A DNA stretch of 64,000 bases. Origin: Escherichia phage FL18. Under the pieces are notes generated by a model. That model saw only the letters and a list, made by a program, of their open reading frames with translations, made no database searches and was not told where the DNA came from. Below, piece by piece: positions 2,926 through 49,170 of this stretch. The stretch is from the sequence record PP400780, one strand, 5' to 3'. The translations under genes were made by a program, and so were the position numbers. Each line of letters starts with the position of its first letter. Within the stretch, counting starts at the first letter, position 1.

Positions 2926-3590
2926 ATGTAGTATATAAACTATCATTTATTAGTAGAATTAATGCTAAAACCCCGCCATATTATTATATTGGAAGTAAAA
3001 CCAATTGCACTTTTGACGGAACGAATATTATTGATAAAAATGGTAAATTTTATTATTCGTCTTCGTCATCTTCCGAATTTCAAAAAGCTTTGTTGAAAGA
3101 AACACCGAAAGTTGAAATATTATATTTTCAATTAGTCGGAGATGAACAAATAACTAGCATTGAAGCTGAATTTCAAAAGAATATAGAAAAAGATATATGG
3201 AATAAAGAGTATTTTAATTTAGCATATGCTAATGGTCAATTTACAACGTACGGTGTTTCTCCTTCTAAAGAAACTAGAGAAAAGCAATCAATAACCATGA
3301 TTAAAAGAAATCGTAATAAAGGTAAAAATCATGGATTTTATGGAAAGCATCATACTAATTTAGCCAGAAAGAAAATATCAGAAGCTTCTAAAAAATACTG
3401 GAAAGAAAATCCACATCATGGATTTTCGCACACAAAGGAAGCTAAAATTAAAATTGGAATTTCATCTTCTATCAGGCATAAAGGAAGTGGAAATCCGATG
3501 TACGGCGTAAAACCTTGGAAAACTCCTAGCGTTGTTCCATGGAATTTAGGTAAAATGAAAGAAATGGTAAAACGAGTAAAACATGCATAG
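2922..3590 (+). CDS. GIY-YIG-like homing endonuclease-like protein (degenerate motif)
   Basis: 222 aa; VYKLSF...YYIGSK resembles GIY-x(n)-YIG; NUMOD-like GSGNPMYG repeat; paralog of ORF 13128..13661. Confidence 0.55.
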   Translation: MNVVYKLSFISRINAKTPPYYYIGSKTNCTFDGTNIIDKNGKFYYSSSSSSEFQKALLKETPKVEILYFQLVGDEQITSIEAEFQKNIEKDIWNKEYFNLAYANGQFTTYGVSPSKETREKQSITMIKRNRNKGKNHGFYGKHHTNLARKKISEASKKYWKENPHHGFSHTKEAKIKIGISSSIRHKGSGNPMYGVKPWKTPSVVPWNLGKMKEMVKRVKHA

Positions 3591-7691: not shown

Positions 7692-7700
7692 TGATATAAT
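7692..7700 (+). promoter_or_regulatory. extended -10 element (TGaTATAAT) upstream of gene 55
   Basis: TGATATAAT about 30 nt upstream of gene 55 ATG; TGCTTTA-like box lies further upstream at about 7665. Confidence 0.3.
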
Positions 7701-7729
7701 AGATCTATGAATTGAGCTAAGAGGTGAAA

Positions 7730-8287
7730 ATGTCAGAAACTAAGCCTAAATATAATTACGTAAACAATAAAGAGCTTTTACAAGCTATTATTGATTGGAA
7801 AACAGAATTAGCAAATAATAAAGACCCAAATAAAGTAGTTCGTCAGAATGATACTATCGGATTAGCCATTATGCTTATTGCAGAAGGCTTATCTAAACGT
7901 TTCAACTTTTCAGGATACACCCAGTCTTGGAAACAAGAGATGATTGCAGATGGGATTGAAGCCTCTATTAAGGGACTTCATAATTTCGACGAAACTAAGT
8001 ACAATAACCCGCATGCATACATAACTCGAGCTTGTTTTAATGCTTTTGTCCAACGTATCAAAAAAGAACGTAAGGAAGTTGCAAAGAAATATAGTTACTT
8101 CGTTCATAATGTCTACGACAGTCATGACGATGATATGGTAGCGTTGGTAGATGAAACGTTTATTCAAGACATCTACGATAAAATGACGCATTATGAAGAA
8201 TCCGCTTATAAAGCTCCTGGGGCTGAAAAGAAGGAAGTTGTTAGCGATTCGCCTAGTTTGGATTTTTTATATGAGGACGACAATTGA
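7730..8287 (+). CDS. 55: late-transcription sigma factor gp55
   Basis: 185 aa from ATG ([10 protein letters not shown]); matches T4 gp55 N-terminus and length; GAGGTG RBS. Confidence 0.9.
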
Positions 8288-8486
8288 CATCTCTAACTAC
8301 TTAGAAGAACCTTTTGACGAAGCAATCCCTTATTTGGTAAAACTGTTGGGTCGAGAATTTAAAATTAATTTTGACATCGACCCTTTGAACCCACATGACG
8401 TGTCATTTTCGATAAATGGGACTCCAGTTGAGTACGAGTTCCGTATTGAAGAGGACGGACGTTTTTATTTTAATTTAATGAGATAA
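8271..8486 (+). CDS. hypothetical protein (71 aa)
   Basis: Internal ATG of ORF 8193..8486 overlapping gp55 stop. Confidence 0.4.
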
Positions 8487-8487
8487 T

Positions 8488-8811
8488 ATGACTACCGAGA
8501 TTATTGAAAATAAAGAAGCAGAAGATGCAGTAGCTAAAATGCTACAAGAAATCCAAAAGAAAAATGAAGCTGAAGCACGTAAAAAATCCGAAAAGATTCT
8601 TAAAAAGAATCGTTTTGAACTAAACCGTCTTTATGCTCATGCTCAAGAAGCAGCAATTCAAAACAACTTCGAAGCTTACGAATATGCTATTAAGAAATCT
8701 CGGGATATTCTACGACAACCATATAATGACAAGTTAATTAAAATCCAGTGGGTTACTACTCGTCAGGCTATTGAGGACATCATTAATGGCGCTAGTTCAA
8801 ACAAAGTTTAA
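8488..8811 (+). CDS. hypothetical coiled-coil protein
   Basis: 107-aa ORF rich in E/K/A/Q. Confidence 0.55.
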   Translation: MTTEIIENKEAEDAVAKMLQEIQKKNEAEARKKSEKILKKNRFELNRLYAHAQEAAIQNNFEAYEYAIKKSRDILRQPYNDKLIKIQWVTTRQAIEDIINGASSNKV

Positions 8812-8992
8812 ACGTCTGAAGCTGAACGCAGGGTTCACCCTTAAATTGGGAGGTCCTCTTTGTGTTAAAATTTCTGAAAAGGAATATCACGACGGTTCTA
8901 TTACAGAAATTTGTCCGCCTATTGTAAAGGCACACCCAAAACAACTCGTGTGGGTTGATTCATTTCAAGTTAAGAAATGGTGGAAACGATGA
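8786..8992 (+). CDS. hypothetical protein (68 aa)
   Basis: ATG (MALVQTKFKR) overlapping end of upstream ORF. Confidence 0.35.
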   Translation: MALVQTKFKRLKLNAGFTLKLGGPLCVKISEKEYHDGSITEICPPIVKAHPKQLVWVDSFQVKKWWKR

Positions 8993-9031
8993 GAGAAATT
9001 GATTTAGGCATTTTCTGAGAGGTGCTTATGC

Positions 9032-9205
9032 ATGACGAACATCCCGACTTCTGAAAATTTCGATAAAATCCGTAAAGGCAAAGCAGAAAGAATGAGACGT
9101 TTTAAAGAGTCTTATGATAAAGCTAAAGCCGAAGGAACTATTACATACAAGCCCATTCGATTTAAAAGTTCAAATGAGCCTCTGTACGGTGTACTATGTG
9201 GATAG
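9032..9205 (+). CDS. small hypothetical protein (57 aa)
   Basis: ATG after GAGAGGTG RBS; below ORF-track length cut-off; ends at terminator hairpin. Confidence 0.35.
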   Translation: MTNIPTSENFDKIRKGKAERMRRFKESYDKAKAEGTITYKPIRFKSSNEPLYGVLCG

Positions 9206-9228
9206 GAACTCTTCGGAGTTCCTTTTTT
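9205..9228 (+). terminator. intrinsic terminator
   Basis: GGAACTC-TTCG-GAGTTCC perfect hairpin followed by TTTTTT. Confidence 0.6.
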
Positions 9229-9251
9229 GCTTTATAAACGGATGATAGAAT
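9228..9251 (+). promoter_or_regulatory. MotA-box middle promoter upstream of gene 47
   Basis: TGCTTTA box about 19 nt (centre to centre) upstream of TGATAGAAT extended -10. Confidence 0.45.
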
Positions 9252-9274
9252 GAATTAACTAATGAGGAAATAAT

Positions 9275-10294
9275 ATGAAAATTTTGCACTTAGGCGACTT
9301 CCATATCGGAGTCAAACAAGACGACCCATGGGTTCAAGATATTCAACGTGATGGTATTCGACAAGCAATTGAATACTCTAAGAAACACGGGATTAAAACT
9401 TGGATTCAGTACGGTGATTGGTTTGACGTCCGTAAAGCAATAACACATCGTACAATGGAATTCAATCGTGAAATCGTTGATATGATTTCTAAAGCAGGCA
9501 TTCACGTTCATGTCACGATAGGAAACCATGACATGGCGTTTAAGAATACAATAACACCTAACACTGTTTCTGAATTGTTAACTCAATTTGAAAACTTTAC
9601 TATTTACGAGCATCCGACTACTGTAGATTTTGACGGATGTCTGATTGATATCGTTCCATGGATGTGTGAAGAAAATACAGGTGAAATCTTAGAGCACATC
9701 AAGACTTCTTCTGCCGCATATTGTGTTGGGCACTGGGAACTGAATGGCTTTTATTTCTATAAAGGGATGAAGTCTCATGGGCTTGAACCTGATTTCTTAA
9801 AGACCTATAAACAAGTCTGGTCTGGCCACTTCCATACAATCTCTGAAGCTGCTAACGTCAAATATATTGGGACACCATGGACCCTTACTGCAGGTGATGA
9901 GAACGACCCTCGCGGATTCTGGGTATTTGACACTGATGTTGAACGTATGGAATTTATTCCTAATGAAACAACATGGCATCGACGAATCACTTATCCATTT
10001 AAAGGCAAAATCAATTATTCTGATTATACTAATCTAGCCGTACGTGTTATAGTATCAGAAATTGATTCAGAGTTGACTAAGTTTGAATCTGAACTTGAAA
10101 AAGTAGTTCACTCTCTTCGTATGGTTTCTAAAGTTGATAACAGTGTTGAATCTGATGACGACCAGGAAATCGAGATTAAATCACTTCAAGATATCATTAA
10201 AGAATATATTGACGCGATTCCAGATATCTCAGACGAAGACAGAGAAGCGCTGGTCAAATATTCCAACGAACTTTATATTGAGGCGACACAATGA
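9275..10294 (+). CDS. 47: recombination endonuclease subunit gp47 (Mre11/SbcD-like)
   Basis: 339 aa; phosphoesterase motifs LHLGDFH, GDWFD, GNHD, GHWE, GHFH. Confidence 0.9.
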   Translation: MKILHLGDFHIGVKQDDPWVQDIQRDGIRQAIEYSKKHGIKTWIQYGDWFDVRKAITHRTMEFNREIVDMISKAGIHVHVTIGNHDMAFKNTITPNTVSELLTQFENFTIYEHPTTVDFDGCLIDIVPWMCEENTGEILEHIKTSSAAYCVGHWELNGFYFYKGMKSHGLEPDFLKTYKQVWSGHFHTISEAANVKYIGTPWTLTAGDENDPRGFWVFDTDVERMEFIPNETTWHRRITYPFKGKINYSDYTNLAVRVIVSEIDSELTKFESELEKVVHSLRMVSKVDNSVESDDDQEIEIKSLQDIIKEYIDAIPDISDEDREALVKYSNELYIEATQ

Positions 10295-10548
10295 CTTTAG
10301 ATGAATTTAATAATGCTGGTCTTGGGCTTGAAGTTGAAATAGACGTTAAAGATGATGATGGATTCGAGAACACTATCAAGTATTGGATTGAACCATTACG
10401 TGTTGAAGGCAATGAAGTTAAAGCAGTTCATGTCTGCACCGACTGGGCTATTGAATTTAGCTTTAATATAATGGACAACGATACTCCCGGCTCTATTCTT
10501 AAAATGGCTGAAGCGTGTATTGAGGATGCGTATAATGACGAAGACTGA
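10291..10548 (+). CDS. hypothetical acidic protein (46.x series)
   Basis: 85-aa ORF, ATGA overlap with gp47. Confidence 0.55.
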   Translation: MTLDEFNNAGLGLEVEIDVKDDDGFENTIKYWIEPLRVEGNEVKAVHVCTDWAIEFSFNIMDNDTPGSILKMAEACIEDAYNDED

Positions 10549-16766: not shown

Positions 16767-19478
16767 ATGAAAGAATTTTACTTAACGGTTGAACAGATTG
16801 GTGATTCAATTTTTGAACGTTACATCGATTCTAATGGCCGTGAACGTACTCGTGAAGTAGAATATAAACCATCACTGTTTGCTCATTGTCCAGAAAGTCA
16901 GGCTACGAAATATTTCGATATCTACGGTAAGCCGTGTACTCGTAAGTTGTTCGCTAATATGCGTGATGCCTCCCAATGGATTAAACGCATGGAAGATATC
17001 GGACTTGAAGCACTTGGCATGGACGATTTCAAATTGGCGTATTTGTCTGACACTTATAACTATGAAATCAAATACGACCATACAAAAATTCGTGTGGCTA
17101 ACTTCGACATCGAAGTAACATCTCCGGATGGGTTCCCTGAGCCATCACAAGCAAAACATCCGATTGATGCTATCACCCATTATGACTCAATTGACGACAG
17201 GTTCTACGTATTTGATCTATTGAATTCTCCATATGGTAATGTAGAAGAATGGTCTATTGAAATCGCTGCTAAGCTTCAAGAACAAGGCGGTGATGAAGTT
17301 CCATCTGAAATTATCGATAAAATCATTTATATGCCGTTCGATAACGAAAAAGAATTGTTGATGGAATATCTCAACTTCTGGCAACAGAAAACTCCTGTCA
17401 TTTTGACTGGATGGAACGTTGAGTCATTCGATATTCCATATGTGTATAACCGAATCAAGAATATTTTTGGCGAATCTACTGCGAAACGTTTATCACCGCA
17501 TCGTAAAACTCGTGTTAAAGTTATCGAAAACATGTATGGTTCTCGTGAAATCATTACATTGTTCGGTATCTCTGTTCTTGATTACATTGACCTTTACAAA
17601 AAATTCTCTTTTACCAATCAACCGTCGTATTCTCTGGATTACATTTCAGAATTTGAATTGAACGTTGGTAAACTGAAATATGATGGCCCTATTTCTAAGC
17701 TTCGTGAAAGCAATCACCAACGATATATAAGCTATAACATCATCGACGTGTATCGTGTATTGCAAATTGATGCTAAGCGTCAGTTCATCAACTTGAGTTT
17801 GGACATGGGTTATTATGCTAAGATACAGATTCAATCTGTGTTTAGCCCAATTAAAACATGGGATGCTATTATTTTTAATAGCCTTAAAGAGCAGAACAAG
17901 GTGATTCCACAAGGTCGTTCTCACCCGGTTCAACCTTATCCCGGCGCTTTTGTTAAGGAACCTATTCCAAATCGATACAAATATGTAATGAGTTTCGACC
18001 TTACATCTCTGTATCCAAGTATTATTCGCCAAGTGAATATTAGCCCGGAAACAATAGCAGGAACGTTTAAAGTAGCTCCATTGCATGATTATATTAACGC
18101 AATCGCTGAACGTCCTTCAGATGTGTACAGTTGCTCTCCTAACGGCATGATGTATTATAAAGACCGTGATGGTGTAGTTCCAACTGAAATCACTAAGGTC
18201 TTTAATCAACGTAAAGAACATAAAGGTTACATGCTTGCAGCTCAACGTAATGGTGAAATAATTAAAGAGGCATTGCATAATCCTAATCTTTCTGTTGACG
18301 AACCATTAGATGTTGATTATCGTTTCGACTTCAGCGATGAGATTAAAGAAAAGATTAAAAAGTTGTCTGCTAAATCTCTTAATGAAATGTTGTTTAGAGC
18401 TCAACGTACTGAAGTTGCAGGTATGACTGCACAAATTAACCGTAAATTGCTTATCAACTCGCTTTATGGTGCACTTGGAAACGTTTGGTTCCGTTATTAC
18501 GATTTGCGTAATGCAACTGCAATCACAACATTCGGGCAAATGGCTTTACAGTGGATTGAACGTAAAGTTAATGAATATCTGAATGAAGTTTGTGGTACAG
18601 AAGGTGAAGCTTTCGTTCTATATGGTGATACAGACTCCATTTATGTATCTGCAGATAAAATTATTGATAAGGTTGGTGAATCTAAATTCCGTGATACCAA
18701 CCATTGGGTAGACTTCTTAGATAAGTTTGCACGTGAACGTATGGAACCTGCTATTGATAGAGGTTTCCGTGAAATGTGCGAATACATGAACAATAAACAA
18801 CACTTAATGTTCATGGACCGAGAAGCTATCGCTGGGCCTCCGCTTGGTTCTAAAGGTATTGGCGGATTTTGGACTGGTAAGAAACGTTATGCATTAAACG
18901 TGTGGGATATGGAAGGTACTCGTTACGCTGAGCCTAAACTCAAAATCATGGGTCTAGAAACTCAGAAATCTTCGACCCCTAAAGCAGTACAGAAAGCTCT
19001 TAAAGAATGTATTCGTCGTATGCTTCAAGAAGGTGAAGAATCATTACAAGAATATTTTAAAGAGTTTGAAAAAGAATTCCGTCAATTGAATTATATTAGC
19101 ATCGCGTCGGTATCTTCTGCGAATAACATTGCTAAATATGACGTAGGTGGATTCCCTGGTCCTAAATGCCCGTTCCATATTCGTGGAATTCTGACATATA
19201 ACCGAGCTATCAAAGGTAATATCGATGCACCACAAGTTGTAGAAGGTGAAAAAGTATATGTTCTGCCTTTACGTGAAGGAAACCCATTCGGTGATAAATG
19301 TATCGCATGGCCTTCTGGTACTGAAATCACAGATTTAATTAAAGACGATGTACTTCATTGGATGGACTACACTGTTCTCCTTGAGAAGACATTTATTAAA
19401 CCACTTGAAGGATTCACATCAGCAGCGAAACTCGATTATGAGAAGAAAGCATCTCTGTTCGATATGTTCGATTTTTGA
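16767..19478 (+). CDS. 43: DNA polymerase gp43 (family B)
   Basis: 903 aa; exonuclease motif FDIE, polymerase motifs SLYPS, NSLYG, YGDTDS. Confidence 0.97.
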   Translation: MKEFYLTVEQIGDSIFERYIDSNGRERTREVEYKPSLFAHCPESQATKYFDIYGKPCTRKLFANMRDASQWIKRMEDIGLEALGMDDFKLAYLSDTYNYEIKYDHTKIRVANFDIEVTSPDGFPEPSQAKHPIDAITHYDSIDDRFYVFDLLNSPYGNVEEWSIEIAAKLQEQGGDEVPSEIIDKIIYMPFDNEKELLMEYLNFWQQKTPVILTGWNVESFDIPYVYNRIKNIFGESTAKRLSPHRKTRVKVIENMYGSREIITLFGISVLDYIDLYKKFSFTNQPSYSLDYISEFELNVGKLKYDGPISKLRESNHQRYISYNIIDVYRVLQIDAKRQFINLSLDMGYYAKIQIQSVFSPIKTWDAIIFNSLKEQNKVIPQGRSHPVQPYPGAFVKEPIPNRYKYVMSFDLTSLYPSIIRQVNISPETIAGTFKVAPLHDYINAIAERPSDVYSCSPNGMMYYKDRDGVVPTEITKVFNQRKEHKGYMLAAQRNGEIIKEALHNPNLSVDEPLDVDYRFDFSDEIKEKIKKLSAKSLNEMLFRAQRTEVAGMTAQINRKLLINSLYGALGNVWFRYYDLRNATAITTFGQMALQWIERKVNEYLNEVCGTEGEAFVLYGDTDSIYVSADKIIDKVGESKFRDTNHWVDFLDKFARERMEPAIDRGFREMCEYMNNKQHLMFMDREAIAGPPLGSKGIGGFWTGKKRYALNVWDMEGTRYAEPKLKIMGLETQKSSTPKAVQKALKECIRRMLQEGEESLQEYFKEFEKEFRQLNYISIASVSSANNIAKYDVGGFPGPKCPFHIRGILTYNRAIKGNIDAPQVVEGEKVYVLPLREGNPFGDKCIAWPSGTEITDLIKDDVLHWMDYTVLLEKTFIKPLEGFTSAAKLDYEKKASLFDMFDF

Positions 19479-19518: not shown

Positions 19519-20154
19519 ATGAAAACTACTCCTATTACTATCGCTATTGACGCAATCATAAAACAAGCTTCTTCTTTGGCCGCTATGGCCAAAGTAATTA
19601 GTCAAAACCCTGCTCGTTATAATGCTATTCTAGAAACTCTTCGACGCCCTGGACTTAGTAATTATGAAAGCCGGGTAATTATTACAGGTGTTGGTAAGAA
19701 TGCTAATATCGCAACTAAAGCTTCCGAGACATTTGCTTCACTAGGTATTCCTAGCATGTATTTGAACACTGGGCATTATTCTCACGGTGATGCAGGATTC
19801 ATTGCGCCTAATGATGTGTTGATTCATATTAGTCGTTCTGGTAAGACTGAAGAAATGATAGGTGTTGCTAAACATCTTCGTATGATTCGTCCTCAGGTTA
19901 AACAGATTCTGTTACATTGTAACCCAGACATTCCACAAGAATACGAAGCTCTTTTTGATTATACGTTCTGTACTGGCATCGCGGTAGAGGTTGATGAGAA
20001 TTCTCTGGCTCCGACTATGTCCACTACATTGTTGTTAGCGCTTATCGATACGTTTGCTATCAACCTTTCGTCTGAACGTGGATTTACCTCTAATGATTTC
20101 CTTAAGTTCCATCCAGGCGGTGCACTAGGTGCCATGTTACGAGGCGAACAATGA
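19519..20154 (+). CDS. SIS-domain sugar-phosphate isomerase, arabinose-5-phosphate isomerase-like (KdsD/KpsF N-domain)
   Basis: 211 aa; VIITGVGKNANIATK, HGDAG, HISRSGKTEE, FHPGGALG match the KdsD/GutQ SIS signature; no CBS domains. Confidence 0.8.
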   Translation: MKTTPITIAIDAIIKQASSLAAMAKVISQNPARYNAILETLRRPGLSNYESRVIITGVGKNANIATKASETFASLGIPSMYLNTGHYSHGDAGFIAPNDVLIHISRSGKTEEMIGVAKHLRMIRPQVKQILLHCNPDIPQEYEALFDYTFCTGIAVEVDENSLAPTMSTTLLLALIDTFAINLSSERGFTSNDFLKFHPGGALGAMLRGEQ

Positions 20155-20335: not shown

Positions 20336-22021
20336 ATGAAAAAAGCTGTTATTCTTGGTGCTGGACTGGCAACTCGTTTGTATCCAATAACGCATCATAT
20401 TCCTAAGGTGCTTGTTAACTATAAACAAGATACTATTCTGAGCAATTTGTATACAATTTATTCTGACCTTGGCGCAGATGAAATTATTGTAGTAGTTCAT
20501 TCAAAATTTGCTGAAACTGTTCGAGCTTATTGTGAACAAGAAGGGTTCAATGTGACTATTCGTACAGTTGATGAAGCGTATGGTTCTGCTTATGCTCTTG
20601 CTAAATTACACAAAGATTTAGACGGCCATAATGTAATTGTTAACTGGTGTGATATTATTCCTGATTTTGGTTCATGGTCTTGGAATGTTAACGCAATCTA
20701 TGTTAAGGGTGACGAATGTCGATATAATTTCGACGGTGAAAATATCACTAACGTAGGTTCAACAGGTGGTAATGTTGTAGGAATTTATCAGTTCAAAGAC
20801 TGGGAATTCTATATGGGTTCTACTGATGAGGAAATTCATGAATACTGCAAAGGACGTGATTTCGTAGAATTCCTTTACGGCAGCGCATTCAATAAATCAG
20901 AGCTTATGAATCTAATTGATTTAGGTGATATGCCTAAACTTGAAAAAGCTCATGAAGTTCGTGAACTTAATCGTAGTTTTAATGCAGTTGAAATTGGTGA
21001 AGAAACTGTAACTAAATTCGCATTAACCGAACAGGGTCGAGCTCTTCAGAAAGATGAGATTTCGTGGTATCTTAAAGTGAAATCAGATTCAGTTCCTCAG
21101 TTAGTTTCTGTTAATGAAAATAACTTTGAAATGGAACGCATTAAAGGTAAGCCTGCATTTGAATATATTAAATCCAAATCAAGTCTTGCTCGTCCACAAA
21201 TTGTTGATGCAATTTTAGATGCACTGAAATTCAGCACAGACACTTATTTTGTAAGTCCTGAAACTGTTCGTCGTGATTTCACTAAAGAATTCTATACGAA
21301 AGTTATTGATCGTTGTGAAAGCATTCAACCATTGATTGATTCATTTGGTAAAATCACACATGTGAACTACACTAAGATTGGACGTCTGAAGCCAATGCTG
21401 AAACAAGCTTTAGAACACCTCATTCGTTATCATAACCGTTCTCAGGGACAGTACTCTGTTATTCACGGTGACCCGAACTTCAGTAATACTATGATTACTG
21501 ATAATGGCGAAGTCAAGTTTATCGACCCTCGTGGATATTTTGGTGAAACCAAGATTTACGGGCCAAAATTGTACGATGAAGCTAAAGTGCTTTATGCTGT
21601 TTCAGGTTATGATGAATTCAATGCTAATCCGACCTGGGGGCAGTTTACTATTGATGAAACAACTTGTAATGTGACTATTAACATCAATCCATTAGTTTAC
21701 AAATATAGAAAGATGAGTTCGTTTAACGAGTATCATCATTTGGCAGTGGCAATTATCTGGATTGCATTAGGCGGTTATTTCAAGAATAATCCACTTAAAG
21801 CGGTAGCCGCATATTATAAAGGTATGGAACTTCTGACTAAGCAATTACGTAACATGGGCCGTGTACTTCAGGACGGCTCTATTAGTTATGACGTAGCAGA
21901 ACCTGTAACGGCTACTCTGATTACAAAAAATCCTGGTAAATGGGTACTAACTGATAAAGAAACTGGTGTTTCCTATCGTCCAATCGGTGGCGATATCACT
22001 CATCAATGGGAACGAATCTAA
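20336..22021 (+). CDS. bifunctional sugar-1-phosphate nucleotidyltransferase / APH-fold sugar kinase
   Basis: 561 aa; N-terminal AVILGAGLATRLYPIT nucleotidyltransferase loop; C-terminal HGDPNFSN...FIDPRG phosphotransferase catalytic/Mg loops. Confidence 0.75.
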   Translation: MKKAVILGAGLATRLYPITHHIPKVLVNYKQDTILSNLYTIYSDLGADEIIVVVHSKFAETVRAYCEQEGFNVTIRTVDEAYGSAYALAKLHKDLDGHNVIVNWCDIIPDFGSWSWNVNAIYVKGDECRYNFDGENITNVGSTGGNVVGIYQFKDWEFYMGSTDEEIHEYCKGRDFVEFLYGSAFNKSELMNLIDLGDMPKLEKAHEVRELNRSFNAVEIGEETVTKFALTEQGRALQKDEISWYLKVKSDSVPQLVSVNENNFEMERIKGKPAFEYIKSKSSLARPQIVDAILDALKFSTDTYFVSPETVRRDFTKEFYTKVIDRCESIQPLIDSFGKITHVNYTKIGRLKPMLKQALEHLIRYHNRSQGQYSVIHGDPNFSNTMITDNGEVKFIDPRGYFGETKIYGPKLYDEAKVLYAVSGYDEFNANPTWGQFTIDETTCNVTININPLVYKYRKMSSFNEYHHLAVAIIWIALGGYFKNNPLKAVAAYYKGMELLTKQLRNMGRVLQDGSISYDVAEPVTATLITKNPGKWVLTDKETGVSYRPIGGDITHQWERI

Positions 22022-22407
22022 TGCACCGTGTAGAAAACATGCTTAATCTTTGTTTTGATGTCGATGATTGTATAACAGAGTGGAATAACAATCGTGATTA
22101 CGTGAACTTCAAACCTGACGTCGAAATGGTGTCTGCCATTAATGCCCTGTATGATGCAGGGCATACCATAACGCTTTACACTGCTCGCGGTATGAAGTCA
22201 GTAGGTCCTGGACGTATAGCAATTGACATTCTCCCAAGTCTGATTCAGAACTTGGAAAACATTGGTTTGAAGTACCATAATTTGCTAACACATAAACCAG
22301 TATATGATTGGATTATCGACGACAAAGCTATGCGTCCTGACGAATTCAAAGCTCTTATGAATAAAGGCGAATTCGAAACATTTAAATCGTATAAACCGAA
22401 TCTATAA
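22021..22407 (+). CDS. HAD-superfamily phosphatase (KdsC-like size)
   Basis: 128 aa from ATG overlapping upstream stop (TAATG); HAD motif I CFDVDDCIT. Confidence 0.65.
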   Translation: MHRVENMLNLCFDVDDCITEWNNNRDYVNFKPDVEMVSAINALYDAGHTITLYTARGMKSVGPGRIAIDILPSLIQNLENIGLKYHNLLTHKPVYDWIIDDKAMRPDEFKALMNKGEFETFKSYKPNL

Positions 22408-22463
22408 TAATTTAAGTAAGACCTGCAAAAACCATCGCGTCAATTAACGTGAGATGCAAAAAA

Positions 22464-23624
22464 ATGAATACTTTTAAAATTGGAACGAATTTTGATTTAG
22501 CTCTTCTTGATAAAATCGTAGAGCTCAATAAAACTTATCCTAATAGCTTGATAAACGAAGTATACGGCTCTACAAGAGAAATGGCTTTTGTAGCAGCCAG
22601 ACCTGATTTTAGGCTTCCTGACGTTGACAAAAAGATGTTAGAAGATTACGTTAAACGTTGTAACGAATTAGGTATTTGCTTTAACTATACACTCAACACG
22701 ATAAATCCTGGTTCAAAAAGAGAACTAGTTGAGTGGAAGAAGAAAGCTATTCAGGATTATGTTCAGTATCTTTGGTCAATAGGTGTATGGCGTATTACTA
22801 TCGCTAACCCTGTTGTTATGGAAATTGTTCGTGAAGTCAATAAAGACATTGAGATTGAAGTTTCAACAATTCTACATGTCGATGCTGTAACTCAAATCAA
22901 ATACTTGCATGACCAGTATAATATCAAAAAGGTCTGCTGTGGAATTCATAAGAACCGTTCAGTTTCTTTCCTGAAGCGTGCAGCAGAGTTTTGCAATAAG
23001 AACAATATAATATTTGAAGTTCTTGTAAATGAGTTCTGTTCTAATGCTGGTAAAGGGTATACAACACATTGTAGCTATCGTGACTCTTGCTATATTTTCC
23101 ATAGTACTGATGTTACAGCTGATGATGCTAAATCCTTAAACGGATATCCTATGCAGCACTGTATTAAAGCTCGTGATACAGACCCATTTAACTGGTTGAG
23201 AACTCGTTTTGTTCGTCCTCAAGATTTGAAACTTTATAATGATATTGGTATCACTCAATTCAAAGTTTCAGGACGTACAGGTAGCACAGACTACATTTTG
23301 AAAGTTCTTGAAGCATACGCTTCTGAAAAGTTTGAAGGTAATTTGTTAGAACTGTGGAAGCCTTTAGAGACTATTTTCACTCTTGAAAACGAAACTGAGT
23401 TTTCACATACAGTAAATATTGAAACCTCTTTGTTAGATGGCTTTTTAGAAAAAAGGTGGTTCAGACATCCAGATTTCGATTGTGCTAATGAAATCTGCGG
23501 GACGACGTGTACATATTGTGAAAGATATTATAAACGTCAATTATCTAAAAACGGGTTAGCAGAAAACTCTATATCTATTATTGATATAACTAACTCTGAT
23601 GACGCTTTGAGGTACCCGGAATGA
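22464..23624 (+). CDS. U32-peptidase-family-like protein (TIM-barrel, Cys-rich)
   Basis: 386 aa from first ATG; N-terminal VYGS..FVAAR..NYTLNT resembles U32 barrel; EFCSNAGKGYTTHCSYRDSC cysteine cluster; family assignment tentative. Confidence 0.45.
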   Translation: MNTFKIGTNFDLALLDKIVELNKTYPNSLINEVYGSTREMAFVAARPDFRLPDVDKKMLEDYVKRCNELGICFNYTLNTINPGSKRELVEWKKKAIQDYVQYLWSIGVWRITIANPVVMEIVREVNKDIEIEVSTILHVDAVTQIKYLHDQYNIKKVCCGIHKNRSVSFLKRAAEFCNKNNIIFEVLVNEFCSNAGKGYTTHCSYRDSCYIFHSTDVTADDAKSLNGYPMQHCIKARDTDPFNWLRTRFVRPQDLKLYNDIGITQFKVSGRTGSTDYILKVLEAYASEKFEGNLLELWKPLETIFTLENETEFSHTVNIETSLLDGFLEKRWFRHPDFDCANEICGTTCTYCERYYKRQLSKNGLAENSISIIDITNSDDALRYPE

Positions 23625-23902: not shown

Positions 23903-24619
23903 ATGGGGAAACATAACACAATGAAATATATCAAAGCCGCAGATTTTCAAACCGCATTTAAAGCAGTCAATCGTGAAATTTTAGAAAACCCGGAATTCGT
24001 AACTGATTCTCGTATTGGACGTTGTAATGAAATTGGGTCTATGACAGTAGTTGTTGACACTCCATCATCATTCAAAATGACTGACCCACGTATTAACCGC
24101 ATCTCTTATGAATATGCCGAAGACTTCTGGAAGTTTATGATTTCTGGTGGTACCAACGCAGAAGAAGCGTTTAAGGCATATCCTAATGTCGCTAAATTTA
24201 TTTCTAAACCAAAATCAGATGTTTTGCCGGCGAACTTCAATACTTTCTATGGTCCTCGCATTGCGGCCCAATTACCAGCTCTTCTAAAAGAACTTAAAGA
24301 GAAGCCTAACTCTCGAAGAGTTGTGTTCCAAATTCTAGAAAGTTCTGATCAGGCTTTGCTTGATTCGGATGAAACGCTTGAATATCCATGTACTGACTCA
24401 GTGACTTATTATATTCGTGATGGTAAGCTTTATACCCACTGTCATATGCGTTCTCAGAACTGTGCTGTTGTTATGCAGTTGGATTTTTATCTCCAAGGAA
24501 AATTACTTCATTATATCGCTAACGAATGCGGTGTAGAAGTTGGTGATTATACTCATACCATGGTAAGTGCCCATGTGTTTGAACGTGATTTTGATTATGT
24601 TAAAGGATTCCTTGACTAA
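23903..24619 (+). CDS. thymidylate-synthase-fold pyrimidine hydroxymethylase, divergent (gene 42 position; likely dCMP hydroxymethylase)
   Basis: 238 aa; PNSRRVVFQIL, catalytic-Cys context YPCTDSVTYYIRDGKL, MRSQN, HTMVSAHVFERDF align with T4 gp42/TS motifs but overall divergent. Confidence 0.65.
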   Translation: MGKHNTMKYIKAADFQTAFKAVNREILENPEFVTDSRIGRCNEIGSMTVVVDTPSSFKMTDPRINRISYEYAEDFWKFMISGGTNAEEAFKAYPNVAKFISKPKSDVLPANFNTFYGPRIAAQLPALLKELKEKPNSRRVVFQILESSDQALLDSDETLEYPCTDSVTYYIRDGKLYTHCHMRSQNCAVVMQLDFYLQGKLLHYIANECGVEVGDYTHTMVSAHVFERDFDYVKGFLD

Positions 24620-25518
24620 TGGCTATTTTCCGCGTACCAATCTTGAGTATGCGGTCTTATGAAACTGGACAGTATGCTATCCTTAAGGATGGCAACTTCC
24701 AACTTCATTTGCACCGTGCTAATCCGGGTGATGTGATTACATATCCACGTAATGCATCTGATATTAAAGAATGCGAACGTCTTTTCCCAGAATTTAAGTT
24801 TGTTCCATTATGGTATAAAGATAACGCTTATAACACTCGTAAATATTTCTGGTCTGAAAATGAATTTGTGGTTGATTCATTAATTGCTTATTATGATTGC
24901 GATTTTCTAATCACAGATATAACTGGATATGACGGCGCTTTTGATGTAGAATTCAATTTCAATATCACTGCAGACCCTAATAAACCACGTTTTTATATTG
25001 ACGAATTCTTAAAAACCGACATGTTGTCGGTTAATCGTTCAATCCAAACAACTGTGTTGAATGAACGTCAAAAAGAAGTGCTGGTTAACGCAGGTGCAGA
25101 TGGTAATAAGATTATCGTAACGCAGAAAGTTATACGTCCTTCCATCATGCAGCGTCTTGTAGGTGATTTGGCTCCTATTTATCTAGATGGTATTTTTCAT
25201 CCATTTCGAATTAGTGACCCGTGCTATCGTTTTGAACAAGTGGTTGAATGTGCAATTCAATTAGGTCAACCGCTTTATATAACCGATCCAAATAATAGCT
25301 TTGACAGAAATAAGTATCCTGAAGAAGCGTTGATTCGAATTTTTAAACCAACTAAAACTGAGTACTATCAAATTCTTAAAGGACGTCCGAAGATTCAATA
25401 TTTCGAAAATCCTGAAGAGGTATTTCATCCAGGTCTTGGTGAGTTCATCTACTTTAATGCTTTAATTTCTTCACCGTATAATATACCTAAATATGAAGAT
25501 GTCGTAATCGAGGAATAA
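24619..25518 (+). CDS. hypothetical protein at beta-glucosyltransferase locus (candidate DNA sugar transferase)
   Basis: 299 aa; no similarity to T4 beta-gt noticed; function by position only. Confidence 0.5.
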   Translation: MAIFRVPILSMRSYETGQYAILKDGNFQLHLHRANPGDVITYPRNASDIKECERLFPEFKFVPLWYKDNAYNTRKYFWSENEFVVDSLIAYYDCDFLITDITGYDGAFDVEFNFNITADPNKPRFYIDEFLKTDMLSVNRSIQTTVLNERQKEVLVNAGADGNKIIVTQKVIRPSIMQRLVGDLAPIYLDGIFHPFRISDPCYRFEQVVECAIQLGQPLYITDPNNSFDRNKYPEEALIRIFKPTKTEYYQILKGRPKIQYFENPEEVFHPGLGEFIYFNALISSPYNIPKYEDVVIEE

Positions 25519-25519
25519 A

Positions 25520-26068
25520 ATGGCTAAAATTATTTTAGTAGATGGCCCGGATAATGCTGGTAAAACAACTTTCATTAATGACATAATGGAAATTAGTGAA
25601 AGATATGTAAAAATTGATTTCCCTAAACGAACAGTTGATGGACGTTTCGATGTTAAGTCTCGAAATGAAGTTGGCTGTTTTGAAACGATGTTGAATTATT
25701 TAGACCCTACTAAGATTTATCTGTTAGACCGTGGATATATTAGTAACTGGGTTTACGGACGTATTCGACAAGATGCGGACTCGGTTCTTGACGTTTATGA
25801 ACAGGATTATATTCGTCTTTGCCAAAACCATGATGTGTTCACAATTATTTTAACACGTAACGAAATGACTGAAAGTTTTGAAGACGACCTTATTACTTTG
25901 TCTTCATTCGGTTTTAATACAGTCATTTCACATTTTGAAGAGTTTGCAATTCATAACAAAATCCAAACGTATCAATTACTTAATCATGATGGTGCTAACA
26001 AAGTTATAGGATTTAATGCAAGCGAACGTAATGGTTTGATTACAGAAATCATCAAATGGGCTCGTTAA
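25520..26068 (+). CDS. P-loop nucleotide kinase, thymidylate-kinase-like
   Basis: 182 aa; Walker A VDGPDNAGKTT, LLDRGY (DRY/H-like) motif. Confidence 0.65.
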   Translation: MAKIILVDGPDNAGKTTFINDIMEISERYVKIDFPKRTVDGRFDVKSRNEVGCFETMLNYLDPTKIYLLDRGYISNWVYGRIRQDADSVLDVYEQDYIRLCQNHDVFTIILTRNEMTESFEDDLITLSSFGFNTVISHFEEFAIHNKIQTYQLLNHDGANKVIGFNASERNGLITEIIKWAR

Positions 26069-26167: not shown

Positions 26168-27340
26168 ATGTCTGATTTAAAATCTCGTCTGATTAAAGCT
26201 TCTACTTCTAAAATGACTGCAGACTTGACTAAGTCTAAGCTGTTTAATAATCGTGATGAAGTCCCTACTCGTATTCCGATGTTGAATATTGCACTAGGTG
26301 GTGCTCTGAATGCAGGATTGCAATCAGGCTTGACTATTTTTGCTGCACCTTCTAAACACTTTAAAACGTTGTTTGGACTGACCATGGTTGCAGCATATAT
26401 GAAGAAATATAAAGATGCAATCTGTTTGTTTTATGACTCAGAATTCGGTGCTTCAGAATCTTATTTTCGTTCAATGGGTGTTGATTTAGACCGTGTAGTT
26501 CATACACCAATTCAGTCAGTCGAACAACTTAAAGTTGATATGACTAATCAGCTTGACGCTATTGAACGCGGTGATAAAGTTATTATCTTTATCGATTCAA
26601 TCGGTAATACTGCATCTAAGAAAGAAACCGAAGATGCATTGAACGAGAAAGTTGTAGGTGATATGTCTCGTGCTAAGGCACTTAAATCTCTTTTCCGTAT
26701 TGTGACTCCTTATCTGACTATTAAAGATATTCCATGTGTTGCAATCAACCATACCGCAATGGAAATTGGTGGATTGTACCCTAAAGAGATTATGGGCGGC
26801 GGTACAGGTATTCTTTACTCGGCTAACACTGTATTCTTTATCTCTAAACGTCAGGTTAAGGATGGCACTGAATTGACCGGTTATGACTTCACGTTGAAAG
26901 CAGAAAAATCTCGTACAGTTAAAGAGAAATCTACTTTCCCAATCACAGTTAATTTTGATGGTGGTATCGACCCATTCAGTGGCTTGTTAGAAATGGCAAC
27001 TGAAATCGGTTTTGTAGTTAAGCCTAAAGCTGGTTGGTATGCTCGTGAATTCCTTGACGAAGAAACAGGTGAAATGATTCGTGAAGAGAAATCATGGCGT
27101 GCTAAAGCTACTGATTGTGTAGAATTCTGGGGTCCTTTGTTTAAACACAAACCTTTCCGAGATGCAATTGAAACTAAATATAAACTAGGTGCTATCTCTT
27201 CTATTAAAGAAGTTGATGACGCTGTTAATGACCTTATTAATTGCAAAGCAACAACTAAAGTTCCGGTTAAAACTTCTGATGCTCCGTCTGCAGCAGATAT
27301 AGAAAACGACCTTGACGAAATGGAAGATTTCGATGAATAA
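26168..27340 (+). CDS. uvsX: RecA-like recombinase UvsX
   Basis: 390 aa, close match to T4 UvsX as recalled (MSDLKSRLIKASTSK..., acidic C-terminus). Confidence 0.95.
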   Translation: MSDLKSRLIKASTSKMTADLTKSKLFNNRDEVPTRIPMLNIALGGALNAGLQSGLTIFAAPSKHFKTLFGLTMVAAYMKKYKDAICLFYDSEFGASESYFRSMGVDLDRVVHTPIQSVEQLKVDMTNQLDAIERGDKVIIFIDSIGNTASKKETEDALNEKVVGDMSRAKALKSLFRIVTPYLTIKDIPCVAINHTAMEIGGLYPKEIMGGGTGILYSANTVFFISKRQVKDGTELTGYDFTLKAEKSRTVKEKSTFPITVNFDGGIDPFSGLLEMATEIGFVVKPKAGWYAREFLDEETGEMIREEKSWRAKATDCVEFWGPLFKHKPFRDAIETKYKLGAISSIKEVDDAVNDLINCKATTKVPVKTSDAPSAADIENDLDEMEDFDE

Positions 27341-46316: not shown

Positions 46317-47417
46317 ATGAAAGTTATGTTTATCCCATCTCGCGCAGTCCCATTTAACCCAGAACGTGTACAAGGTGGTCTTGAAGCAGTACATTTAAAT
46401 GTGTTGAAATATCTTGTGTCCATCGGTGCTGATATTGATTATATCGGCTTTGATAATGACACGTTTGGTGACTGGAAGGTTAATCATCATCCTGTTGGTC
46501 ATCTGACTAAATTCAGTCTAGGTATGAGTTATACTATGGCTCGTAAGATTGTTGAACTAGCCGGCATTAATGAGTACGATTTCGTTGTTACAATGGAACC
46601 GACCAAACTAACCGTTCAGGCAATTAAAGACGCAGGTCTCTCTAAAGTTCATAAGAATTTTATGGCAACACCATTTGAACCAGTATCTCGTGGCATTGTT
46701 CAAATTTGGGACCAGACTATTCAAATTCATAAGAACGGTGGTAAGAGTTATGCTCCTACTAAAGCCTTCCGTGAATTTGAACGCAAATATTGTTATATGA
46801 CTTCAGGTCTGACTGACAAAATTGATTATGATTATTGGCGAGCAAATCCGTTGTTTGAAGCCGAAGATTATCCGGTTATTTGTTTGAATGATAAACCTGA
46901 AGTTCTTCCGGCGACGGATCTGATTATTAGTGCACAACGTTATGACACTAAAATGCGTCGTACTGATGTTGCTCTTGAAGCGATTAAAGCACTAGGCGAA
47001 AATGGTGCAGGATACTGTCCAAGCAAATGGGCGCCACCGGCTAAATATCCTGTTATTATTGATGCTCCACACAGTGAAATTATGGAACGTCTTAAAACAG
47101 CTAAAGCACTTATTAATACGTGTCCTGACACAGGTACGGTAGAGAATAGTTCTATTGAAGCCATCTCTAAAGGTGTCCCTGTAATCCAGTTAGTTTTTAA
47201 GGATTATCCTCATGCGACATTTGAATACGACCCAGATACTGTGCGTGTAGAAATTGATTCCTCTACTCCTAAGAAAGAAGTAGTTGCGCTTTACACAAAA
47301 GCTGTATTAGAATTCACTGACACATACGAAGCTCGAGTTAAACGTGCTGAAGCTGTATGGAAGAAGTATAACCGAGATGCAGTTGTTGCGATGTGGGATA
47401 AAATCTTCACAGCGTAA
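46317..47417 (+). CDS. GT-B fold glycosyltransferase (candidate DNA sugar transferase)
   Basis: 366 aa; N-terminal MKVMFIP..GGLEAVH Rossmann start; C-terminal TGTVENSSIEAISKGVPVI resembles the GT4 E-x7-E donor-binding motif. Confidence 0.6.
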   Translation: MKVMFIPSRAVPFNPERVQGGLEAVHLNVLKYLVSIGADIDYIGFDNDTFGDWKVNHHPVGHLTKFSLGMSYTMARKIVELAGINEYDFVVTMEPTKLTVQAIKDAGLSKVHKNFMATPFEPVSRGIVQIWDQTIQIHKNGGKSYAPTKAFREFERKYCYMTSGLTDKIDYDYWRANPLFEAEDYPVICLNDKPEVLPATDLIISAQRYDTKMRRTDVALEAIKALGENGAGYCPSKWAPPAKYPVIIDAPHSEIMERLKTAKALINTCPDTGTVENSSIEAISKGVPVIQLVFKDYPHATFEYDPDTVRVEIDSSTPKKEVVALYTKAVLEFTDTYEARVKRAEAVWKKYNRDAVVAMWDKIFTA

Positions 47418-47722: not shown

Positions 47723-48677
47723 ATGATTATTGAAACGGCTAAAGAAACGATTATTGGTTCTGGTGGTAAAAGCACAGCATTTACTATTCAAGGCAATAGC
47801 AAAGTTTATAAGATTTTGTCTAATGACCTTTATACAAACAAAGAATTGGCTTGTGTACGTGAATTAATCACAAACTGTATCGATGGACAAATTCTTAATG
47901 GTTGCACTGATAAGTTTATTGTTCAGGCTCCAGGTCGTTTAGACCCACGTTTTGTAGTTCGAGACTTTGGTCCTGGTATGAGTGATTTCACCATTCGAGG
48001 TAATGACGAAGAGCCAGGAATCTATAACTCATATTTTGCTTCAACTAAAACATCGAGTAACGATTTCATTGGTGGATTCGGACTCGGCTCTAAAGCTCCA
48101 CTAGCATATACCGATACGTTTAACATTACTTCTTATCATAATGGTGAAGTTCGTGGTTATGTAATTTATCAAGATGACAGTGGTCCACAGATTAAGCCAA
48201 CCTTCGTAGATAAGATGGGTCCTGATGACCGGACCGGCGTTGAAGTAGTTGTGCCTGTTAACCCAGAAGATTTTGAAAAGTTCGCATCCGAAATTGCATA
48301 TGTTATGCGTCCTCTAGGTGATATTGCAGAAGTTCGCGGTGTTAAAGATATCAAATACTTTCCTGAATTCGATGATGTTTATTTAGCCAAGGAAGCTCCA
48401 TGGGGTGAACGTGGTAATATCATGGCTGTTTATGGTGGTATTGTATATCCAATCGGAAGTGTTATTAAAGAACAAACCTGGATGATGACGCGATGCACAC
48501 TACGGCTGGTTAGAATGCAACGAAGTTGTTATTGAAATCCCACCGGTAGATGCAGAATATCTTGAAGAAGGAGACCGCATTTATTTTGGCGAACTACACA
48601 TCAGAGGTATCTATGGTAAAGACGAACTTGGGGCTGTTGAGGCTGAAGAGTCTTCCGACATTTATCCTGTCGAATGA
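47723..48677 (+). pseudogene. rIIA: rII-locus remnant: rIIA N-terminal portion (270 codons) followed by a frame-shifted protein-like segment
   Basis: N-terminus close to T4 rIIA as recalled; frame stops at 48535; another frame stays open 48489..48677 with protein-like sequence. Confidence 0.55.
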
Positions 48678-48693
48678 GTTTTTGACTAGCGAA

Positions 48694-49170
48694 ATGAAGG
48701 TTAAGATCGCTGATACTGCTCGGTACTCGTTGAAACAAGATCCAGACCAAAACAAAGAAGATGTAGTTCGACGTTGTAAGGTTGCGGTCTTTGCAGAGTA
48801 TGTAGTAGCAAATTGGCTAGACGGATATGTTAATAAAGGTATTGAAGACGTAGAAGACCCGTACACGTATGCATGGGACGTGTTAGCCCATCCCAAGTAT
48901 TGTGGAATTCGTGTAGAAGTCAAGACACACCAGATAGATTCTAAATGGATTTCGGTTACCACAGGATACAGTGGTGATTATCCGGGTGGTAATGGAATCA
49001 ATATAGGGCCCTTCCTTAATCATCGAGTCGCAGATTGCATTATTATATTAGATGTCAAAGAAACCTCACCTGACGTCTTCTCTTATTCTATAAAGTTCGT
49101 GGGAGACCATGAAGACCTAAAGAAAATCGTCCGTAAGAGCAACTACAACGGGTGGTATCTTCATCTTTAA
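48694..49170 (+). CDS. hypothetical protein, possible PD-(D/E)xK nuclease (denB candidate by position)
   Basis: 158 aa from ATG in ORF 48550..49170; D...EVK motif (WDVLAHPKYCGIRVEVKTHQ); upstream of ndd as denB is in T4. Confidence 0.4.
   Translation: MKVKIADTARYSLKQDPDQNKEDVVRRCKVAVFAEYVVANWLDGYVNKGIEDVEDPYTYAWDVLAHPKYCGIRVEVKTHQIDSKWISVTTGYSGDYPGGNGINIGPFLNHRVADCIIILDVKETSPDVFSYSIKFVGDHEDLKKIVRKSNYNGWYLHL

Follow-up and report, generated by a model that had tools for sequence, protein, structure and literature searches.

The interval between genes 55 and 47 of Escherichia phage FL18 contains no alpha-glucosyltransferase gene (a-gt), and it is very probably the normal a-gt-free form of a conserved T4-like locus (55, a-gt.5 to a-gt.2, a variable slot, and 47) in an arabinosylating Mosigvirus. 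The absence is real, yet it is an ordinary, published trait of the RB69 group. The window analyzed here comprises 64,000 nucleotides (64 kb of the ~168-kb genome), and all coordinates refer to it. The source phage was placed in the genus Mosigvirus, RB69 group, as its relatives are classified as Mosigvirus, database members of the group share 97–99% DNA identity with it, and its gene order is as in RB69.

Gene content between genes 55 and 47

The upstream boundary is gene 55 for the late sigma factor (7730–8287, + strand), which is annotated as 55 in relatives and whose product is 94.6% identical to RB69 gp55 and 94% to T4 gp55. The downstream boundary is gene 47 for the SbcD/Mre11-like nuclease subunit (9275–10294, + strand; 100% identity to RB69 gp47 and 76% to T4 gp47). 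The first-pass annotation had described the sequence in between as four short ORFs (71, 107, 68, and 57 aa), a terminator, and a MotA-type promoter, and all of these were located. The ORFs, all on the + strand, were orthologs of a-gt.5 (8271–8486, 71 aa; 47% identity to T4 a-gt.5, E = 2e-18; Pfam DUF5491; phrog_1169; 98.5% to RB69p070), a-gt.4 (8488–8811, 107 aa; 58% to T4 a-gt.4, E = 3e-38; Pfam DUF2654; 100% to RB69p069), a-gt.3 (8786–8992, 68 aa; 69% to T4 a-gt.3, E = 5e-34; phrog_1648; 98.5% to RB69p068), and a-gt.2 (9032–9205, 57 aa; 76% to T4 a-gt.2, E = 1e-29; Pfam DUF5486; 94.7% to RB69p067). The Pfam scores of a-gt.5, a-gt.4, and a-gt.2 (49.4, 96.6, and 97.3 bits) all exceeded the curated cutoffs (27, 25, and 27, respectively); a-gt.3 has no Pfam model. 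The a-gt.5 ATG and the end of gene 55 overlap by 17 nt, and the overlap is identical in T4. a-gt.4 has been reported to be conserved in T4 as well as in five further T4-like genomes (PMC1524935); a literature search on the roles of a-gt.2 to a-gt.5 returned only this mention, in which the function of a-gt.4 was called unknown.

The T4 locus has the order 55, a-gt.5, a-gt.4, a-gt.3, a-gt.2, mobB, a-gt, 47.1, and 47, and the earlier statement that a ~400-codon a-gt lies between genes 55 and 47 in T4 was correct. T4 and the window share the flanking genes and the four small genes (47–76% amino acid identity), and T4 has ~2.2 kb more, which accommodates the mobB homing endonuclease gene, a-gt (400 aa), another copy of the stem-loop/promoter unit, and 47.1 (46 aa). 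The four ORFs are thus present as annotated, but they do not set the window apart from T4, since T4 also has them; the true difference is that mobB, a-gt, and 47.1 are missing. Judged by their homology, the four small ORFs are the conserved T4 genes a-gt.5 to a-gt.2 and no substitutes for a-gt. They fill the interval and their functions are unassigned, so one or more of them might be imagined to take over the a-gt function; this is hardly conceivable, because proteins of 57–107 aa are far below the size of a GT-B enzyme, and equivalent small ORFs are carried by phages both with and without a-gt. The replacement was rejected because T4 also carries these genes, where the orthologs coexist with a-gt.

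From the a-gt.2 stop (9205) to the gene 47 ATG (9275) there are only 69 nt, and a gene of ~400 codons was absent from this slot. The empty slot itself was placed at 9252–9274 (+ strand), where T4 has mobB, a-gt, and 47.1, and it includes a Shine-Dalgarno sequence, GAGGA, at 9264–9268. Phage TH58 has 47.1 in the slot, and this ORF (136 bp), located between TATGA repeats, is its sole difference from the window there. The search of the whole window against Rfam yielded no known RNA family.

Conservation of the layout in relatives

In RB69 (NC_004928), the genes RB69p066-071 (47, a-gt.2, a-gt.3, a-gt.4, a-gt.5, and 55) have an order identical to that in the window, and a-gt, mobB, and 47.1 are all absent. 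The proteins of the interval are 94.6–100% identical to their window counterparts. The possibility that the window is RB69 itself was ruled out by the DNA identity of 96.6% across genes 55 to 47 and by a 28-nt RB69 primer site that differs at 2 positions. Furthermore, gp46/47 and gp52/53 are split ORFs in the RB69 reference, whereas each is a single ORF in the window. The phage also has at least one private deletion, rIIA-rIIB, which was found in the FL18 window and does not occur in RB69.

Such a deletion, together with the lack of 47.1, which TH58 retains, could be taken to mean that the absence of a-gt is likewise peculiar to this isolate, the result of either a recent deletion or faulty assembly. 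This is extremely unlikely, as the window from 7700 to 10300 was matched by 133 database records at 95–99% DNA identity, including the independently sequenced RB69, and the 2.6-kb layout was unbroken and unchanged in them.

Absence of glucosyltransferase genes

The first-pass annotation had proposed that a-gt is missing between genes 55 and 47 and that, together with a missing beta-glucosyltransferase gene (b-gt), this supports a non-glucose modification genotype. The tblastn search with T4 a-gt (400 aa) gave no homolog in the window (best E = 0.58; T4 control 100%). The searches of the window with T4 b-gt (best E = 3.1) and with the RB27 (T2-type) ba-gt (280 aa; best E = 1.5; RB27 control 100%) gave no homolog either, and low-stringency tblastn with a-gt and b-gt (word size 2, E up to 100) returned only noise. 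The slot of b-gt, from gene 42 to uvsX, is occupied by a 299-aa GT-B protein and a 182-aa kinase, neither of which was tied to b-gt by tblastn. Homologs of a-gt were found in 657 phage records, and those listed among them were Tequatrovirus-type coliphages and Klebsiella phages.

A homolog elsewhere in the genome would overturn the proposal, and none was detected at the ortholog level, either in the 64-kb window or across the full-length TH58 genome (Mosigvirus), where the best E values were 2.6 for a-gt, 6.9 for b-gt, and 1.6 for ba-gt. For the genome outside the window, a-gt and b-gt are excluded by analogy with TH58 and RB69 only. Relocation of the glucosyltransferase genes to that part, instead of their loss, was therefore considered: the window covers no more than 64 kb of some 168 kb, and the large distance of an arabinosyltransferase candidate (46317–47417) from the main cluster shows that modification genes can be scattered (PMC8056088). 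It is nonetheless very unlikely, given that the complete TH58 genome has no match and that RB69 has been reported to lack a-gt, b-gt, and ba-gt (PMC6024577; PMC13326640). In addition, the ThyA-like enzyme of the window yields, in RB69, 5-hydroxy-dCMP and not hydroxymethyl-dCMP, whose DNA product is used by glucosyltransferases. The non-glucose genotype was therefore supported, with the RB69 arabinosylation genes, present at 98–99% identity, as a further argument, and it was already known for the group.

Arabinosylation genes

The DNA of RB69 contains arabinosylated 5-hydroxycytosine, as determined by LC-MS and NMR (PMC13326640), and the chemistry and enzymology of the modification have been described by Thomas 2018 (PMC6024577) and Lee 2026 (PMC13326640). 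The window encodes, on the + strand, an arabinose-5-phosphate isomerase orthologous to RB69 gp55 (19519–20154; Pfam SIS; phrog_5670, E = 1.6e-116; 98.1% identity to RB69p055), followed by a bifunctional sugar kinase/nucleotidyltransferase corresponding to RB69 gp52:53 and analogous to AfhE (20336–22021; Pfam NTP_transferase; 99.4% and 99.5% to RB69p052 and RB69p053). The latter is an intact ORF of 561 aa, the C-terminal kinase-like matches of which were under the Pfam cutoff, and RB69 cloning primers match both of its ends. Further downstream on the same strand are genes for a HAD-like sugar phosphatase (RB69 gp51, AfhF analog; 22021–22407; 98.4% to RB69p051), with its role taken from PMC13326640, and for a U32-family protein (RB69 gp50; 22449–23624; Pfam Peptidase_U32; 99.2% to RB69p050), with an unassigned role in the pathway.

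The position of gene 42 in T4 is occupied by a gene for a ThyA-like 5-hydroxy-dCMP synthase (RB69 gp48; 23903–24619, + strand), which is 99.2% identical to RB69p048 over 238 aa and only 24.8% to T4/RB27 gp42. The activity of RB69p048 has been shown experimentally (PMC13326640). The gene is followed, again on the + strand, by that for a GT-B glycosyltransferase of 299 aa in the T4 b-gt position (RB69 gp46:47; 24619–25518; 98–99% identity to RB69), a candidate first arabinosyltransferase, and by that for a thymidylate-kinase-like nucleotide kinase of 182 aa (RB69 gp45; 25520–26068; phrog_761; 98.4% to RB69p045). A second GT-B glycosyltransferase of 366 aa, the candidate second arabinosyltransferase, is encoded at 46317–47417 (+ strand; RB69 gp3 / ORF003c; 98.9% to RB69p003). 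Its AlphaFold2 model, for which 5 aligned sequences served as input, had low quality in the N-terminal half (mean pLDDT 63.6), and the assignment was instead based on the ~98% full-length identity to PDB 9iqz, "phage HY126 glycosyltransferase". The protein was considered a narrow family because an exhaustive representative search gave only 16 relatives. Both transferases showed the features of the GT-B fold, i.e., two Rossmann-like domains and similarity to known GT-B enzymes. They are distant GT-B-fold relatives of a-gt and candidates for arabinosyltransferases, not glucosyltransferases.

By analogy with RB69, for which this scheme has been shown and whose genes are 98–99% identical, the phage would not make glucosyl-hydroxymethylcytosine. 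The ThyA-like enzyme would produce 5-hydroxy-dCMP, phage enzymes would convert ribulose-5-phosphate to UDP-arabinose, and the GT-B transferases, one of them in the b-gt position of T4, would add one or two arabinoses onto the 5-hydroxyl. The modified base is probably not hmC, its RB69 counterpart being 5-hydroxycytosine made by the ThyA homolog (PMC13326640). With arabinosylation in place of glucosyl-hmC, alpha- and beta-glucosyltransferases would be unneeded, which would explain why none is present.

Predicted terminator and middle promoter

An intrinsic-terminator-like stem-loop with a T-run was found at 9204–9228 (+ strand). The stem-loop (9204–9223) has an 8-bp stem, AGGAACTC / GAGTTCCT, and a UUCG (TTCG) loop, and its predicted RNA fold had an energy of −13.9 kcal/mol (z = −4.2), with 0 of 200 shuffled sequences folding as well. 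The same arrangement of stop codon, CTTCGG stem-loop, and T-run 3′ of a-gt.2 was also observed in T4, S1P5QW, Roth78, CHI14, and TH58. Next to it, a putative MotA-type middle promoter for genes 47 and 46 was located at 9228–9251 (+ strand), having TGCTTTA at 9228–9234, an 11-nt spacer, and TAGAAT at 9246–9251, in agreement with the published T4/RB69 middle-promoter consensus (PMC1524935). The pattern TGCTTYA-N11-13-TANNNT had 18 matches in the window, mostly on the + strand, against 2.0 expected (18 was reached in 0 of 100 shuffles), and the motA gene itself is within the window (52330–52962). Transcripts that run through gene 55 and a-gt.5 to a-gt.2 may thus be halted or attenuated at the UUCG stem-loop, and the MotA-dependent promoter may restart transcription into genes 47 and 46.

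Gain or loss of a-gt at the slot

In T4, S1P5QW, and Roth78, the stem-loop/MotA-promoter unit is present 3′ of both a-gt.2 and a-gt, i.e., two units flank a-gt, whereas the window, TH58, and CHI14 have a single unit. Being flanked by two such units, a-gt would therefore behave as an insertable or deletable cassette. Gain and loss were compared using pairwise identities and eight sampled lineages. Across the eight T4-like groups, the slot was empty more often than occupied, with Karamvirus, Krischvirus, and an Acinetobacter phage as further examples of the empty state; because most sampled lineages have it, the empty slot is more likely, on this comparison, to be ancestral than a product of loss. 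The divergence of a-gt between T4 and Roth78 (66% identity) is near that of the flanking core genes (70% for gp47 and 68% for gp46), and this would be compatible as well with ancient vertical inheritance and subsequent losses.

Accordingly, a Mosigvirus ancestor might have had a-gt, which recombination between the flanking terminator/promoter units would have removed on the switch to arabinosylation. T4 and the Klebsiella phage Roth78 have a-gt in exactly one and the same slot, the a-gt divergence between them resembles that of neighbouring core genes in general (68–79%), and T4 is, by those core genes, nearer to the window than to Roth78. Moreover, the unit of the window looks recombinant-like, having GCTTTATAAA in common with the upstream copy of T4 and CGGA..TGATA.AATGA with the downstream copy. 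However, a hybrid-looking unit is equally expected from an insertion duplicating one ancestral unit, the slot is without a-gt in 5 of the 7 other sampled groups (cited: RB69, TH58, Winklervirus, Karamvirus, Krischvirus, and an Acinetobacter phage), and genes 55 and 47 are annotated as adjacent in distant T4-like phages, namely several cyanophages and Dickeya phage Kamild. Such a loss was consequently regarded as rather unlikely.

Tentatively, and at somewhat below even odds, the T-even a-gt can be described as a self-contained mobile cassette bounded by direct-repeat units of UUCG terminator and MotA middle promoter, with the Mosigvirus locus as the empty docking site. If a-gt is such a mobile cassette, the precise loss of 47.1 between the TATGA repeats would represent a second, minor event at this slot as a hotspot, and the units would mark predictable sites for the gain, loss, or swap of DNA-modification genes.

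Significance

Which restriction and defence systems of the host are evaded or triggered by a T4-like phage depends on its modification genotype, and so does the ease with which the phage can be cut, sequenced, or edited. For annotation, the window is to be recognised as that of an arabosyl-5-hydroxycytosine (RB69-type) phage and not a glucosyl-hmC phage. This genotype is already known, having been described by Thomas et al. 2018 and Lee et al. 2026 and in the annotation of RB69. The arrangement of the slot, with a-gt between repeated terminator/middle-promoter units, may be a modest new addition, and, together with the mostly empty slots, it suggests how T4-like phages exchange glycosylation genes.

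Comparison with known systems

The arabosylated 5-hydroxycytosine pathway of the RB69/DLP3/HY126 type was represented in the window by all listed RB69 genes of this genome part, at 98–99% identity and with the order kept. No difference from that pathway was detectable by sequence.

The units at the slot would, with a-gt as a mobile cassette, be the middle-promoter analogue of PeSLs. The promoter of a PeSL, as originally defined, is sigma-70-like and early and its stem is polyG/polyC (PMC2839356), whereas the slot units combine a MotA-dependent middle promoter (TGCTTTA at about −30) with a short GC stem capped by a UUCG loop. Neither the sigma-70-like promoter nor the polyG/polyC stem was found here. 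As in the PeSL cassettes described for RB49/phi1 and further T4-like phages (PMC2839356; PMC4122927), composite units of a stem-loop terminator and a promoter border a dispensable gene on both sides, and loci lacking the gene have one unit only.

Gene content between genes 55 and 47

The window is AT-rich (GC about 33-42%), and its early and middle genes are on the + strand. Between the end of gene 55 (8287) and the start of gene 47 (9275), four small ORFs of 71 aa (8271-8486), 107 aa (8488-8811), 68 aa (8786-8992), and 57 aa (9032-9205) were identified as counterparts of T4 a-gt.5, a-gt.4, a-gt.3, and a-gt.2, with identities of 47%, 58%, 69%, and 76%, respectively. Three of them matched Pfam families above the curated cutoffs (DUF5491, DUF2654, and DUF5486), and all four matched PHROG families without known function. 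Gene 55 and a-gt.5 overlap by 17 nt, as in T4. The gene order in the T4 record is 55, a-gt.5, a-gt.4, a-gt.3, a-gt.2, mobB, a-gt, 47.1, 47, whereas the window lacks the mobB homing endonuclease gene, the alpha-glucosyltransferase gene a-gt, and the 46-aa 47.1. The four ORFs were rejected as stand-ins for a-gt, since T4 carries the same genes alongside it.

The terminator scan located a stem-loop at 9204-9228 (8-bp stem, UUCG loop, T-run; fold -13.9 kcal/mol, z = -4.2 against shuffled sequences). Directly 3' of it is a MotA-type promoter (TGCTTTA at 9228-9234, 11-nt spacer, TAGAAT at 9246-9251) with the layout of the T4/RB69 middle-promoter consensus (PMC1524935). The motif had 18 matches in the window against a chance expectation of 2.0, predominantly on the + strand, and the MotA gene is at 52330-52962. 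The first-pass annotation, which had placed only four short ORFs, a terminator, and a MotA-type promoter here, with no a-gt, was borne out in all details.

Search for glucosyltransferase genes

The 64-kb window and the complete genome of Mosigvirus TH58 were searched by tblastn with three queries: a-gt and b-gt as given in the T4 record, and ba-gt (T2-type) of RB27. No significant homolog was obtained in either target with a-gt (best E 0.58 in the window and 2.6 in TH58), b-gt (3.1 and 6.9), or ba-gt (1.5 and 1.6). The positive controls scored 100%. Homologs of a-gt were found in 657 records of the phage collection; the records listed were Tequatrovirus-type coliphages (at least 90% identity) and Klebsiella phages (about 66%). 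For RB69, published work likewise concludes that glucosyltransferases are lacking (PMC6024577; PMC13326640).

Close relatives and the rII region

The stretch spanning genes 55 to 47 aligned without a break to 133 database phages (95-99% identity). Of the window's first 25 kb, 89% aligned to phage JM17, with 98.7% identity in the aligned part. Taxonomically, these relatives are placed in Mosigvirus (RB69 group). RB69 has the same layout, annotated 55, a-gt.5, a-gt.4, a-gt.3, a-gt.2, 47, with 96.6% DNA identity across the locus; that the window is RB69 itself was rejected on two mismatches in one RB69 primer site. JM17, the closest relative, has a GIY-YIG homing endonuclease gene inserted behind its kinase/nucleotidyltransferase gene (JM17 sequence L003, 48195-48956), which the window lacks at ~22006, where a HAD phosphatase gene comes directly next. 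Mobile endonuclease genes of this kind probably account for several of the gaps where the window and its relatives do not align.

Compared with close Mosigvirus relatives, the rII region (47723-48700) has a ~2.54-kb deletion, seen in none of the top database relatives. Its junction is near 48490-48498, where two alignment blocks share 9 nt. The rIIA match extends to about residue 258-292 of 737, with a window ORF of 270 aa. The rIIB gene is wholly missing, and the following small ORF is without its first ~28 codons; denB, ndd, gene 52, and motA are intact downstream.

Modification genes

Between the DNA polymerase (16767-19478) and uvsX (26168-27340) genes, the window encodes an arabinose-5-phosphate isomerase with a SIS domain, a 561-aa nucleotidyltransferase/kinase fusion (20336-22021), a HAD-like phosphatase, a U32-family protein, a ThyA-like protein (23903-24619), a 299-aa protein with no Pfam match (24619-25518), and a thymidylate-kinase-like protein. 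Together with a 366-aa protein, also with no Pfam match (46317-47417), these were 98-99% identical to RB69 gp55, gp52:53, gp51, gp50, gp48, gp46:47, gp45, and gp3, respectively. The genes split in the RB69 reference as RB69p053/052 and RB69p047/046 each form one intact ORF in the window (561 and 299 aa), in agreement with the published account of the splits as sequencing errors (PMC6024577; PMC13326640).

The 366-aa protein, a candidate second arabinosyltransferase, shares about 98% identity along its entire length with a solved structure, 9iqz ("phage HY126 glycosyltransferase"). Its family is very narrow, with 16 relatives among 1.84 billion representative proteins, about 8-10 of them full length; the first-transferase family (299-aa protein) has >130.

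Arabinose was found earlier in RB69 DNA, and ORF003c was proposed as the transferase (Thomas et al. 2018, PMC6024577). Lee et al. 2026 (PMC13326640) reported mono- and di-arabinosylated 5-hydroxycytosine in RB69 DNA and formation of 5-hydroxy-dCMP by gp48 with O2 as the oxygen source; the remaining RB69 genes plausibly produce and transfer UDP-arabinofuranose. The ThyA-like protein was 99.2% identical to gp48, the 5-hydroxy-dCMP synthase, and 24.8% identical to gene 42 of T4/RB27, and judging from these identities, dCMP hydroxymethylase would be a wrong annotation for the window 'gene 42' (23903-24619). By orthology, the FL18 genotype would be non-glucose, as in RB69, and hydroxymethylcytosine is probably not even the precursor base. 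The non-glucose genotype, proposed initially from the missing glucosyltransferases, is supported by the lack of any significant glucosyltransferase match in the window and in TH58, together with the RB69 gene set. The absence of a-gt is an ordinary lineage trait and no discovery; both it and the non-glucose genotype are already in the literature and the RB69 GenBank annotation.

The a-gt slot in T4-like phages

Within Mosigvirus, TH58 retains a 47.1 homolog (TH58 sequence L005, 25677-25813), a 46-aa membrane protein 74% identical to T4 47.1. In the window (9252-9277) and RB69, exactly this 136-bp ORF is missing, with TATGA at each edge of the missing segment, and gene 47 consequently uses the position of the TH58 47.1 ribosome-binding site and start.

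The slot junctions, between a-gt.2 and gene 47, were compared by sequence across several T4-like phages. The terminator/promoter unit consists, in order, of a stop codon, a GC stem with a CTTCGG loop, a T-run, (T/A)GCTTTA, about 12 nt, and TAnAAT. T4, Tequatrovirus S1P5QW, and Klebsiella phage Roth78 have two units, one after a-gt.2 and another after a-gt; the window, TH58, and Winklervirus CHI14 have a single unit and no a-gt. In CHI14, a Serratia phage (sequence L010, ~3040-3300), there appears to be an unannotated ORF with an a-gt.2-like C-terminal part behind a Cys-rich segment resembling that of the 85-aa Roth78 protein; the ORF annotated there is unrelated (14% identity).

An empty slot was likewise seen in one Karamvirus, one Krischvirus, and one Acinetobacter phage, and genes 55 and 47 are annotated as neighbours in several cyanophages and Dickeya phage Kamild. 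Among the phages compared, an empty slot is therefore more common than an occupied one, and it is probably the older state. Loss of a-gt in Mosigvirus, which this distribution makes less likely, would fit the identity of a-gt between T4 and Roth78 (66%), near that of the flanking core genes (gp47 70%, gp46 68%). The a-gt gene may be seen as a cassette bounded by terminator/promoter units, a modest addition whose statement was not found in the literature consulted. A matching arrangement has been described for the promoter-early/stem-loop (PeSL) cassettes of other T4-like phages (PMC2839356, PMC4122927); the PeSL promoter is sigma-70-like and early, whereas that at the a-gt slot is a MotA-type middle promoter.
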